Below are positions 24,502-27,798 of a stretch of 32,000 bases of DNA, in pieces. The notes under the pieces were generated by a model. It did not search any database and had not been told where the DNA came from. It worked only from the letters and a program-made list of their open reading frames with translations. The position numbers and the translations under genes are program-made. Location: positions 2,070,001 through 2,102,000 of the forward strand of contig NC_007484.1 in assembly GCF_000012805.1 (NCBI RefSeq), read 5' to 3'. The stretch is from Nitrosococcus oceani ATCC 19707. Lineage in GTDB: Bacteria; Pseudomonadota; Gammaproteobacteria; Nitrosococcales; Nitrosococcaceae. Positions within the stretch are counted from its first letter, which is position 1; each line of letters starts with the position of its first letter.

Positions 24502-27500
24502 ATGGCAGAACAGCAAAGCCCCGTGCTACCTCTTTCGGGGATGGTGCTCTTATTAGCGATTATTAGCGCGGTCGTTTATCAGGAAACTCCCTTACAAGGA
24601 TCACGCCCAACGGCGGAATTCCAGGAAGGACTCTCTGTTCAAGGCATCGAAGATGTGCCAGCTCGCCTGTGGCAAGATCCCTTTGCCGCAGTGAAACGCA
24701 ATTCTATCCGCAAGGATGATACTCATCCATCGGAGAAGGATATTTCACCCTGTCAGTCTGATAAACCTGTTCTTCGTCACACCCTTTTCGAGCTTTTTTG
24801 CCAAATTAAAAAGGAGCAGCGAGCTGATGCCGCGGCAACCCCACTCATCGTAATGGGAGTAATGATGTTCGGCGGTCCTTATGCTGAAAGCAGCGAATGG
24901 CGGTTACGTAGCCGCTATACGGTAGTCTCTGCGCTAGGCAGAGCAAATTATATCCCCAAAGACTCTGAGCATATTGGCTTCGTAGACCTGCTGAAAAGCA
25001 GCAGTTGTTCAAAAGAAAATATAGAAAATTGTCCGGCAGCCAAGCTCCCACGTATTATTCCCTATGAATGGTTTTACCCTGCTGACAATGAGAAACACCC
25101 TCCTCTACTGGTGCTTTGGCTTGATGACGGCGCCTTCGGCAAGTACCCCTTAAGCAGGCTGATTGCCTTACAGCGCCTGCTCCAGCAAGAAAATAATTAT
25201 AACTTTCATTTTAAAATTCTAGGGCCGACGGGTTCAAGCAGCCTGCTGACGATGGTAAAGGAAATCGAAAATTTTTTATGGCAACAGCCCAATAGCATAA
25301 AATCACCGGCGCAAGCCGAGCATTCAGAGCTGCCCACCGATAAGCCCTCTCAGAATACCTTTGCAATCTATTCACCTTCCGCCACGGTATCAACGGGTAT
25401 AGCAGGCAAACCGTTTTCAATGCTTGAAATAAAAGAATCCCTTGCCAAGCAATTCCAACAAATTGGAATAAATTTTTATCGAACGATTAATCATGATTGG
25501 GACCTTGCCTTAACGTTAATAGACGAATTAAAGCGCCGAGGAATCAATGTTATTTGCGATCCCGGAGAGGATCACCGCCAGCCAATACCTAATAATCAAT
25601 ATAATACGGGAAACAACCTTGGTTCTGCCACCTTAGCTGACAGCAAAGACACACTTGAAGCACACACGGATCATATCGTACTTATTGCCGAATGGGATAC
25701 ACTTTATGGACGCTCTCTACCAAAATATTTTGAATGCGCGATTGCAGCTCGGCACGTTCATCTAAGCACGAATCTCCCTCAGACAAAATCACCCATCAAA
25801 CAGCATTGTGAAACACAATGGATTCACCGGTTCAGCTACCTTCGTGGCATTGATGGACAACTCCCCGGCAAACAGCAGCCAAGAAGCACAAAAAATTTTC
25901 AACCGACTGCAAAAAACAACTCGATCGAAACAATTACCCTAGATAGGAAAAAGCAAATTGAGCGGCCAGTGGGAAGAGGCCAATTCGACTATATACACCG
26001 GCTTTCCCGACAGATTTACAGGCTCCAAAAAGAATTACAGCGAGACAATAAAGAGATCAAAGCCATCGGCGTCCTGGGCAGTGACGTCTACGATAAATTG
26101 CTAATATTACAGGCCCTCAAAAACCGTTTTCCAAACGCTATATTCTTTACCACCGATCTCGATGCCCGCCTCTTTCACCCCGCCGAATATGAATGGGCTA
26201 GAAATTTGGTCGTCGCTTCGTCTTTCGGCCTCCAATTAAACCCTCAATTACAGCAAGACATACCACCTTTCAGAAGTGCTTATCAGACGTCACTATTCTA
26301 TGCCGCCTTGCTTGCCATCACCCATGCTCATCCTGGACGGCAGGATCTTTTTCAAAAACTCCTTGGACCCGCGCCTTCTTCTTCGTCGCCTACCCAGAGG
26401 CAACTAAGCCAAGACAGGCTACAAAAATTACTTAAACCTCGAATCTTTGAAATCGGTTATAGCGGCCCTGTCGATCTTAGTGTGCAAGACTCTCACTTAC
26501 ATGTACCGCGGGAAAATCCTTTTACTCAGCCTCACCCTGTATATAGCATAATTGCCTTGGTGCTGTTGTCGCTCCTATTATATTTATCCAGCGATCCGGT
26601 GATGAATGGTATCCACGCTATTTTTAAAGGCATCAGAACCCATCCTGTTGGCTCCTTTCTGGGAGTTATCTTATTTGCCGCAGCCATCACGGTACTCCTA
26701 TTATGGCTACTGCCCGCCATAATCCTCGCCCAGGGGGAAGGATGGTGGCGAGAGGAAGATCCCGTATTATGGTTCGAAGGAATCAGCATTTGGCCCAGTG
26801 AACTGCTCAGAATAACTGCCGCCTTGCTTGCCTTCCTATTTATCCGTAAAGCATCCCACGATATCCAAAATAGTAATAAGGCCCTCACGCAAGCATTTTT
26901 GTTACCGCAGCAACCCAACGGTCAATTAGCGAGAAATGTTTTAAAAAAAACCAGAATGGGAATTCTGATTCACAGATGGCAGCAAGCGGGCGTTTCAGGC
27001 CAACGAGATGTCACCACCCTCTGGCAACAACATCTTGCCCTTAGCGCCAAATGGCCACGCCTGAAGCGGGTTATGCTCTACGTAATCCTGTTTCTTGGCT
27101 TTGGTTTTTCTTTAATGGAGTTGCTTGGCTATCCCAACCACCCTTATCGCGGCGATTTCAGCCGCTGGATTAATTTCTCGGTATTGCTGTTCAGCGTCGG
27201 ATTTATGTTAATTCTAGTGTTTTGGGTCGTGGATGCCACCCGTCTATGCGCCCAATTTATCGATCATCTCTCTACGCAGGAACTTCCTTGGAATAGAGAA
27301 AAACTGGCGCTTCTTTCCCAACGGTATCAGATTACAGAGGATTATCTTGGACCGGTGCTCAAAATCAGATTAGTGGCGGATCAGACTATCGTAATCTCAC
27401 GGCTGATCATCTATCCATTTATTATCTTGGCCCTCATGATTATATCCCGCCTCTCCTATTTCGATAACTGGACCATCCCCATGGGACTGATTATTGTTTT

Positions 27501-27798
27501 TTTGCTCTTATTCCTTTATGTCCTTATCTGTGCTATCACCCTGGAGCGGGCAGCGGAAAACGCCCGCGCTCAGACTAGGGATTGGCTAATGGAAAAGCAT
27601 ATTGGCATCAAAGGAGATCCCGCCGCTCCTAACTATCGCAGCGAACAACTACAGCTTCTCATTGAAGATCTCAGAAATATTCAGCGGGGAGCCTATGTGC
27701 CTTTTATTCAGCAGCCCATGGTCAGGGCTATTTTATTACCTTTTGGAGGAGTGGGAAGCATAGCATTCATCGAATATTTATACAGCATATTGGGATAG
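24502..27798 (+). CDS. Large polytopic membrane protein of unrecognised family (1098 aa). It has an N-terminal TM anchor, a soluble region of about 650 aa and a C-terminal cluster of about 7-8 TM helices.
   Basis: This long uninterrupted ORF begins 35 nt after the preceding gene. The hydrophobic segments are:
- residues ~13-25
- ~684-702
- ~722-750
- ~770-792
- ~862-882
- ~897-920
- ~972-995
- ~1003-1028
- ~1075-1095

The soluble region contains FKILGPTGSSSLLTMV and IKAIGVLGSDVYDKLLILQALKNRFPNAIFFTTDL. These are loosely reminiscent of type-I periplasmic-binding-fold strands, but this is unverified. Confidence 0.7.
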   Translation: MAEQQSPVLPLSGMVLLLAIISAVVYQETPLQGSRPTAEFQEGLSVQGIEDVPARLWQDPFAAVKRNSIRKDDTHPSEKDISPCQSDKPVLRHTLFELFCQIKKEQRADAAATPLIVMGVMMFGGPYAESSEWRLRSRYTVVSALGRANYIPKDSEHIGFVDLLKSSSCSKENIENCPAAKLPRIIPYEWFYPADNEKHPPLLVLWLDDGAFGKYPLSRLIALQRLLQQENNYNFHFKILGPTGSSSLLTMVKEIENFLWQQPNSIKSPAQAEHSELPTDKPSQNTFAIYSPSATVSTGIAGKPFSMLEIKESLAKQFQQIGINFYRTINHDWDLALTLIDELKRRGINVICDPGEDHRQPIPNNQYNTGNNLGSATLADSKDTLEAHTDHIVLIAEWDTLYGRSLPKYFECAIAARHVHLSTNLPQTKSPIKQHCETQWIHRFSYLRGIDGQLPGKQQPRSTKNFQPTAKNNSIETITLDRKKQIERPVGRGQFDYIHRLSRQIYRLQKELQRDNKEIKAIGVLGSDVYDKLLILQALKNRFPNAIFFTTDLDARLFHPAEYEWARNLVVASSFGLQLNPQLQQDIPPFRSAYQTSLFYAALLAITHAHPGRQDLFQKLLGPAPSSSSPTQRQLSQDRLQKLLKPRIFEIGYSGPVDLSVQDSHLHVPRENPFTQPHPVYSIIALVLLSLLLYLSSDPVMNGIHAIFKGIRTHPVGSFLGVILFAAAITVLLLWLLPAIILAQGEGWWREEDPVLWFEGISIWPSELLRITAALLAFLFIRKASHDIQNSNKALTQAFLLPQQPNGQLARNVLKKTRMGILIHRWQQAGVSGQRDVTTLWQQHLALSAKWPRLKRVMLYVILFLGFGFSLMELLGYPNHPYRGDFSRWINFSVLLFSVGFMLILVFWVVDATRLCAQFIDHLSTQELPWNREKLALLSQRYQITEDYLGPVLKIRLVADQTIVISRLIIYPFIILALMIISRLSYFDNWTIPMGLIIVFLLLFLYVLICAITLERAAENARAQTRDWLMEKHIGIKGDPAAPNYRSEQLQLLIEDLRNIQRGAYVPFIQQPMVRAILLPFGGVGSIAFIEYLYSILG

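Follow-up and report, generated by a model that had tools for sequence, protein, structure and literature searches.

What kind of protein is encoded by the longest open reading frame (ORF) in a 32,000-nucleotide stretch of the Nitrosococcus oceani ATCC 19707 genome (contig NC_007484.1, positions 2,070,001 to 2,102,000; the whole stretch is referred to below as the window)? The ORF in question, Noc_1846, occupies positions 24502..27798 of the + strand and, according to the ORF list and its translation, is a complete gene that begins with an ATG and specifies 1098 amino acids followed by a stop codon. It exceeds every other ORF in the window in length, as a sequence-only reading of the same DNA had pointed out. 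That reading also described the product as receptor-like or channel-like, which we find a fair wording, since a predicted Venus-flytrap domain is fused to a multi-helix membrane domain and no other output domain is present. Relying on predicted structures, we tentatively propose that Noc_1846 may be a single-polypeptide ligand-gated channel-like membrane receptor, a reading that we favour while rating its chance at somewhat less than even.

The exact sequence of the protein is that of Q3JA33 from N. oceani ATCC 19707; there are four N. oceani accessions, all of them named "hypothetical protein". Since the initiating methionine (M1) and an "LPxSG" motif are conserved across the family, the start codon is right. 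Searches with Noc_1846 returned 0 matches in Pfam, NCBIfam and PADLOC, and 46 family members scanned against Pfam at E<=10 produced scattered noise with nothing recurrent. Profile searches of PDB sequences, made with the whole family or with the membrane block alone, retrieved noise only (lens MP20, orexin receptor, LptF, opsin); the weak HMMER matches of Noc_1846 to the orexin receptor and opsin (E 0.4-2.7) are likewise noise. The earlier statement that the protein has no recognisable family thus holds at the level of sequence. A literature search for Noc_1846 yielded no mention of it and no description of its family.

Topology and predicted folds

Two AlphaFold2 models were used, one of the full-length protein (52-sequence alignment; mean predicted local distance difference test score (pLDDT) 75.6, predicted TM-score (pTM) 0.72) and one of the membrane domain (aa 672-1098, 119 sequences; pLDDT 82.7, pTM 0.78). 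In the latter, pLDDT is above 90 over most of the region between helices S2 and S7a. Helices were assigned with DSSP, and both models were compared with the PDB using Foldseek. Conservation (the frequency of the most common residue) and loop charges were calculated over 119 homologs, and family hydropathy over Noc_1846 and a 52-member alignment. All nucleotide coordinates are window positions on the + strand unless indicated otherwise.

The hydropathy profile of both the protein and the family peaks at a signal-anchor transmembrane (TM) helix, TM0 (aa 12-27, 24535..24582; helix 12-25 in the model). It is followed by 654 non-hydrophobic residues (aa 28-681, 24583..26544), which hydropathy, AlphaFold2, Foldseek and charge bias together delineate as a putative periplasmic domain. 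Further on, hydrophobic segments are found at aa 682-696, 715-742, 764-783, 857-875, 890-914, 965-982 and 993-1014, with a weaker one at 1080-1097. One anchor, a soluble part of 654 residues and eight segments agree with the architecture given in the sequence-only reading (a TM anchor, about 650 soluble residues and a block of 7-8 TM helices). The segment at aa 682-696 (26545..26589; family hydropathy 2.12), helical in both models at low pLDDT, is a candidate linker helix that would run from the periplasm to the cytoplasm. With TM0, the linker and the seven-helix block described below, the total comes to nine helices. Averaged over the family, the net charge is +2.5 for the segment between the linker and S1, -2.6 for the first external loop (EL1), and +4.7 and +3.1 for the first and third internal loops (IL1 and IL3). 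By the positive-inside rule, this charge bias predicts that aa 28-681 are periplasmic, that the N-terminal tail is cytoplasmic and that the seven helices start from the cytoplasm.

In the AlphaFold2 model, residues from about 110 to 660 form alternating strand-helix units arranged in two lobes, with long low-confidence insertions. The two strand-like motifs singled out in the earlier reading correspond to real beta-alpha units of the model (strand 235-240 with helix 245-261; strand 518-524, helix 529-539 and strand 547-551). When the soluble part was compared with the PDB, Foldseek retrieved type-I periplasmic-binding/Venus-flytrap structures only (E 2e-6 to 1e-2, probability 1.0, target-normalised TM-score 0.42-0.61). 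The top match is the extracellular domain of mGluR5 (E 2.3e-6), followed by fish T1r2a-T1r3 (7e-6); the Leu-bound LIVBP-type protein 4q6b matches at E 1.1e-4 with a target-normalised TM-score of 0.61, and further matches are the LIVBP-type proteins 3n0x and 3lkb, the urea-binding protein 8tg1 and AmiC (1qo0). The predicted structure therefore supports a type-I periplasmic-binding/Venus-flytrap fold for the soluble region, as had been guessed from the letters. With LIVBP-type proteins, AmiC, the urea-binding protein and the extracellular domains of class C G-protein-coupled receptors (GPCRs), the domain shares a predicted two-lobed alpha/beta fold together with an extracytoplasmic location, as predicted from charge bias, and, judging from the model, conserved cleft-facing strand ends. 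It differs from them in being about 300 residues larger, owing to the long low-confidence insertions, in having TM helices on both sides and in showing no detectable similarity in sequence to the Pfam Peripla_BP or ANF_receptor families.

Conservation over the whole protein is highest at aa 516-610 (IKAIGVLGSDVYDKL...FFTTDLDARL...NLVVAS...PPFRxxYQT; 26047..26331), where the mean is 0.70 and 35 positions are at least 90% conserved. The near-invariant motifs of the flytrap (GxPYAE, LGPxxS, YSxxAT, EWDTxYGR, GSDVYDK, FFTTDLDA, VAS and PPFRxxYQT) occur in the model where strands end and helices start, the positions at which periplasmic-binding and Rossmann-like folds bind their ligands. Because of this placement, the conservation would imply one conserved ligand or, less likely, catalysis. 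The bacterial proteins structurally closest to the flytrap bind amino acids, urea or amides. Closer to the membrane, Noc_1846 carries an invariant motif, R35-P36 ... R55-L56-W57-x-D59-P60.

The remainder of the protein (aa 715-1098, 26644..27795) is predicted in both models to be a seven-helix block. It consists of S1 (715-742), S2 (764-799), S3 (850-875), S4 (884-925), S5 (946-981), S6 (994-1038) and a split seventh helix made of S7a (1044-1058), a conserved linker (1059-1071) and S7b (1072-1098). S4, S5 and S6 (42, 36 and 45 residues) are far longer than a bilayer, and S7a is modelled as a short cytoplasmic helix. The external loops EL1, EL2 and EL3 comprise 21, 8 and 12 residues; IL1 has 50 residues in Noc_1846 against a family mean of 82. 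The best-conserved elements of the block are EL3 (SRxxYFDNWxxP, aa 982-993, 27445..27480; 0.64), which ranks first within the membrane block, the S7a-S7b linker (0.60) and EL2 (GxPxxPxRG; mean 0.59). R983, D988 and W990 of EL3 are at least 90% conserved. EL1 (EPFxxxEGISxWP, aa 743-763, continuing into S2; 26728..26790), which carries the negative charge mentioned above, is likewise conserved, with G760, S762 and P765 invariant and E753, P754 and W764 at least 90% conserved. The C-terminal tail (RxGAFxPFxQxP...LLPxGGxG...EYL, 27676..27795), which covers the S7a-S7b linker and the putative last membrane segment, had been called conserved-looking. G1063 and P1072 are indeed invariant in it, and A1064, F1065, P1067 and G1082 are at least 90% conserved. 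The last segment is broken at the Gly-rich PFGGVG into helices 1072-1078 and 1084-1097 (pLDDT 54-68). The conservation of EL2, EL3 and the S7a-S7b linker is in keeping with a gate and a contact surface for the flytrap.

The only family that consistently matched the membrane block in both models was that of the insect gustatory and odorant receptor (GR/OR) channels, represented by Gr43a, Gr64a, BmGr9, AaegOR10, AgamOR28, MhOR5 and OR5-Orco. These matches have E 0.014-0.3 and a Foldseek probability of up to 0.96, cover the whole target and account for 12 of the 24 top matches in the domain-only search. Designed helical bundles, ClyA-type pores, TTYH2, bestrophin and ExbB were dismissed as noise at a Foldseek probability below 0.3. 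No MFS, APC, ABC-TMD or TRAP transporter fold rose above Foldseek noise, and a class C GPCR-type membrane domain was rejected too, there being no GPCR in the top 50 of the domain-only search.

GR/OR channels belong to the 7TMIC superfamily, which has thousands of prokaryotic members and is recognised by seven helices, short outer and long inner loops, an inside N-terminus with an outside C-terminus, long TM4-TM6 and a split TM7 (Himmel, Moi and Benton 2023, bioRxiv 10.1101/2023.08.30.555482). The Noc_1846 block likewise has seven predicted helices with short outer and long inner loops, long helices 4-6 and a split seventh helix; an inside N-terminus is shared according to the charge bias, and conservation, which is strongest around helices 4-7 of the block, is similarly distributed. 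With the long loop that connects helix 2 to helix 3, the block is reminiscent of the PHTF-like class. On the other side are the two extra helices and the periplasmic ligand-binding-type domain of about 650 residues, as well as the length of helices 4 and 5, which are long in Noc_1846 and reported to be shorter in most prokaryotic 7TMICs (bioRxiv 10.1101/2023.08.30.555482). We therefore use "7TMIC-like", weakly, as the best available description of the modelled resemblance and not as an established membership; homology of the block to the superfamily seems to us possible but doubtful. Since the prokaryotic census kept only proteins with exactly seven predicted TM helices (bioRxiv 10.1101/2023.08.30.555482), a nine-helix fusion like Noc_1846 would have been excluded from it.

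A candidate ligand-gated receptor and its rivals

The mechanism that we propose is as follows. The signal-anchor helix would place the flytrap domain in the periplasm, and the linker helix would return the chain to the cytoplasm, from where the seven-helix block would follow with its N-terminus inside, its three long helices extending into the cytoplasm and its last helix split. A small periplasmic ligand would close the flytrap, and the movement would pass via the conserved periplasmic loops EL1, EL2 and EL3 to the membrane block. The block itself would be the output, most probably by opening an ion-conducting path, as judged by analogy with its only structural relatives, the insect GR/OR channels. 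No cytoplasmic signalling domain was found in Noc_1846 by Pfam, in the 46-member scan or in the model, where the cytoplasmic parts are loops and helix extensions.

The design of a flytrap joined to a membrane output is known from class C GPCRs, ionotropic glutamate receptors (iGluRs) and bacterial GluR0, but the membrane module of Noc_1846 resembles that of neither GPCRs nor iGluRs. Class C GPCRs (mGluR, CaSR, T1R) have the same order of domains, an extracellular type-I flytrap and then a seven-helix block, and full-length mGluR3 aligns with the Noc_1846 model at E 1.8e-4, an alignment driven by the flytrap. The Noc_1846 block is not rhodopsin-like, lacks the cysteine-rich linker and is accompanied by an N-terminal anchor and a linker helix, and to our knowledge G-protein machinery is not to be expected in these bacteria. 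In iGluRs and GluR0, a binding-protein-type clamshell is fused to a channel in one chain. They are the best-known precedent for flytrap-gated ion flow, and the amino-terminal domain of iGluRs is LIVBP-like. Gating there is carried out by a type-II clamshell into which a K-channel-like pore with a re-entrant loop is inserted; neither such a clamshell nor such a pore was detected in the Foldseek results for Noc_1846. In insect receptors, the ligand site lies within the helices, and our literature search on bacterial 7TMIC fusions and flytrap-7TMIC pairs returned no description of a 7TMIC with an external binding domain.

A bolder version of the proposal, which we consider rather unlikely, is that these proteins form a previously unrecognised bacterial 7TMIC branch in which a periplasmic flytrap, attached covalently, gates the seven-helix channel. 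They would then be a third independent flytrap-plus-membrane-output design beside class C GPCRs and iGluRs, spread horizontally among nitrifiers and nitrogen-cycle bacteria, and could sense an amino acid, urea or an amide. A flytrap wired straight to a membrane block that has no other output would allow bacteria to convert an outside chemical signal into an event at the membrane by means of one protein, and the identity of its ligand could reveal what nitrifiers sense at their surface. Were 7TMIC membership true, the family would offer a tractable bacterial model for channel gating, would prove that an external ligand-binding domain is an option for 7TMICs and would mean that the published seven-helix-only prokaryotic census missed fusion architectures.

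Several observations weigh against a flytrap-gated channel. On the side of the soluble domain, no Peripla_BP or ANF_receptor match occurs among the 46 members (Pfam, E<=10), the PDB-sequence profile search with the family found no binding protein, and hhalign gave a probability of 0.1% for the family against E. coli LivJ, pairing only "IYSPSAT" with "ITPAAT", an alignment that makes topological sense without being significant. The strict conservation of acidic, Thr and Ser motifs could reflect catalysis rather than binding. As to the membrane block, the TM-scores of the GR/OR matches are only 0.24-0.33 and the root-mean-square deviation is 11-20 A despite a confident domain model, while the E-values are just ca. 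5-10 times better than the E of ~0.14 reached by obvious noise such as designed helical bundles and ClyA. 7tm_6, 7tm_7, DUF3537 and other Pfam families are absent from the 46 members at E<=10, and PDB-sequence profile searches at E<=10 retrieved no GR or OR. The outside location of the modelled C-terminus is not secure, S7b having low pLDDT (54-68) and modest hydrophobicity. In addition, 1 bp is inserted into an A-run immediately downstream of window position 26604 in the N. oceani draft GCA_000740735.1 (L089:8104); this insertion cuts the ORF to 708 aa and is either a sequencing error or a real pseudogenisation. Between two N. oceani strains, the ratio of nonsynonymous to synonymous differences is 16:9 for the Noc_1846 homolog, 7:16 for the neighbouring protease and 2:6 for MgtE (small numbers). 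These ratios fit relaxed constraint or real decay in that strain; taken with the frameshifted copy, the raised 16:9 ratio would make the gene dispensable at least there.

The genes around Noc_1846 bear on several of the alternatives. Upstream on the same strand lie a gene for a 346-aa protein with NAL1_N and trypsin-like protease domains (22754..23794) and two small ORFs, with a 35-nt gap before Noc_1846; a second N. oceani strain shows the same gene order. In 88 homologous loci, surveyed together with as much as 8 kb of sequence to either side, neither the protease nor either small ORF had a tblastn match. ORF clustering of these loci revealed no conserved ATPase or other operon partner, the only synteny being within lineages. 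The six contexts that carry annotation come from different phyla (Nitrococcus, Nitrosospira, Nitrospira, NC10, Syntrophorhabdales and a metagenomic genome of 5.6 Mb) and contain no peptidase and no common neighbour. Because no neighbour is conserved across lineages and the protease is absent elsewhere, Noc_1846 appears, from gene order, to act alone and not as part of a protease module.

This disposes largely of the suggestion, made in the sequence-only reading, that Noc_1846 is a sensor or effector of the adjacent S1 protease module (22754..23794 and the two small ORFs), to which we assign only a very small chance. Although the four N. oceani genes lie on the same strand with short gaps in one low-G+C stretch and remain together in the second strain, none of the 88 loci from other organisms has the protease or the small ORFs within ca. 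8 kb. The closest homologs, from Nitrococcus (46% identity), come without a protease, and 6 of 6 contexts have no peptidase, so that the link is already contradicted as a family-level function. A ligand sensor without conductance would draw on the same flytrap fold: the block would relay the signal through cytoplasmic helix contacts to an unlinked partner or through a change in oligomeric state. The long cytoplasmic helix extensions and an IL1 of ca. 80 residues could dock such a partner, and the similarity to 7TMICs is too weak to demand a pore. Bacterial sensors, however, nearly always carry or adjoin their transducer, and here there is neither a recognisable output or adaptor domain nor a neighbour conserved in the 88 loci; we consider this explanation unlikely.

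Somewhat less probable still is a secondary transporter fused to its binding protein, in which a solute in short supply (amino acid, urea or amide-like) would be caught by the flytrap and moved across the membrane by the block. The closest bacterial matches (4q6b, 3n0x, 3lkb and 8tg1) are solute-binding proteins of uptake systems, and a solitary gene is what a self-contained transporter would have; yet neither Foldseek nor Pfam points to a known transporter fold or family, no inverted-repeat architecture is evident and a conserved ATPase partner is missing. A further rival, a membrane-anchored periplasmic enzyme, would have a catalytic Rossmann-like two-lobed domain (near-invariant motifs EWDTxYGR, GSDxYDK and FFTTDLD) and helices that only serve as an anchor or bring a lipid-linked substrate. 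The acidic, Thr and Ser residues at strand ends are unusually strict over thousands of homologs, and ligand-binding flytraps usually vary more. The top structural matches, however, are all non-catalytic binding domains, no enzyme family emerged from Pfam, NCBIfam or PDB searches, and a seven-helix block with conserved loops far exceeds what an anchor needs, which leaves an enzyme improbable. More generally, the sequence-only reading had named a confident match to some unrelated transporter or enzyme family as evidence against itself, and none was obtained. The ligand-gated, channel-like receptor remains the reading that we favour.

Family size, spread and variation

A single search retrieved more than 694 homologs of Noc_1846, nearly all of them 970-1190 aa long, unnamed and 30-46% identical to it over the full length. 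When one genome per GTDB species was scanned, homologs turned up at 532 loci. With a profile of the C-terminal block alone, an exhaustive HMMER search gave 3,629 clusters (50% identity) under a cut-off of E<=1e-3 and 2,300 under one of E<=1e-30, so that chance can be dismissed as the origin of the architecture. This family of at least 3,629 clusters, present in 532 GTDB species, is without annotation of any kind. About 118 of the 150 best matches to the C-terminal block are at least 900 aa long and have the block at the very C-terminus. Since the same architecture recurs in one ORF across thousands of homologs, Noc_1846 is not a fusion artefact, and the earlier reservation about a fused or frameshifted ORF falls away, although one N. 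oceani draft strain does have the 1-bp insertion. A stand-alone version of the membrane block was considered and rejected: the short matches (332-885 aa) show a continuous spread of lengths, begin inside the family alignment and look like fragments at contig ends. Variants of 1268-1606 aa turned out to carry no new domain either, being the same protein with an insertion of 200-450 residues at query aa ~260-320 that has no Pfam domain.

Nitrospira, Nitrosospira, Nitrosovibrio, Nitrosomonas and Nitrococcus predominate among the best 80 GTDB loci. The same set takes in Scalindua, Methylomirabilota, Methylotetracoccus, Desulfobacterales, Syntrophorhabdales and Geomonas, as well as Verrucomicrobiia, Acidobacteriota, Burkholderiales and Variovorax. 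An enrichment of the family in nitrifiers is suggestive and not proven, the list being ranked by similarity to the Nitrosococcus query. Be that as it may, the main oxidisers of ammonia and nitrite in culture have the family (Nitrosococcus, Nitrosospira, Nitrosomonas, Nitrospira and Nitrococcus), as do anammox and NC10 bacteria. Occurrence on plasmids is rare, with one Ralstonia megaplasmid and one partial match in Methylosinus.

Between ca. 20 and 28 kb of the window, the G+C content is 0.38-0.47, compared with 0.53-0.57 in both flanks. This stretch (~20000..28000) spans a DedA/VTT gene, a 104-aa coiled-coil/TM ORF, the protease module and Noc_1846, and its composition suggests a horizontally acquired island. 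That nitrifiers from three phyla carry the family, and that G+C is low around Noc_1846, together point to its horizontal spread.

Nitrosospira briensis has two tandem paralogues (L003:8001-11282 and L003:11587-14760; 1093 and 1057 aa), the second of which is 30% identical to Noc_1846 over the full length. Such tandem copies could form hetero-oligomers or serve two ligand specificities.

Genomic surroundings

The two small ORFs of the protease module (23742..24161 and 24230..24466, both +) are paralogues of the N-terminal NAL1_N-like domain of the protease: in BLASTP, aa 21-97 of the protease match the 78-aa ORF at E 7e-9, and the two small ORFs match each other at E 2e-12. An inhibitor- or chaperone-like role is possible for these two free-standing copies of the N-domain. 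For the 139-aa ORF, a start downstream of its TTG is probable; in the other N. oceani strain a gene caller gives 55- and 100-aa versions.

On the other side of Noc_1846, a norD-like gene (VWA), norQ (AAA_5 and CbbQ_C) and a norB-like COX1 gene (28017..31995, -) converge on it. In 15 loci of the Nitrospira lineage (L016-L081), an NnrS gene (Pfam E 4.5e-107) is found ca. 2.3 kb downstream of the family gene, e.g., at L081:13310-14560. Nitric-oxide-related neighbours in two unrelated lineages amount to two independent events only and could be a coincidence.

Three of the six annotated contexts (Nitrococcus, Nitrospira sp. MA-1 and NC10; L001, L005 and L006) hold toxin-antitoxin, transposase, restriction-like or BrxL genes and are variable, island-like regions; the toxin-antitoxin pairs seen near family genes are HigB, ParE, PIN/MazE and HicB. 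With regard to a role in defence islands, Noc_1846 has no PADLOC match and the other contexts are metabolic. The other large ORFs of the window, all on the - strand, are 3167..6382 (1071 aa), 1070..3088 (672 aa) and 9392..11404 (670 aa).

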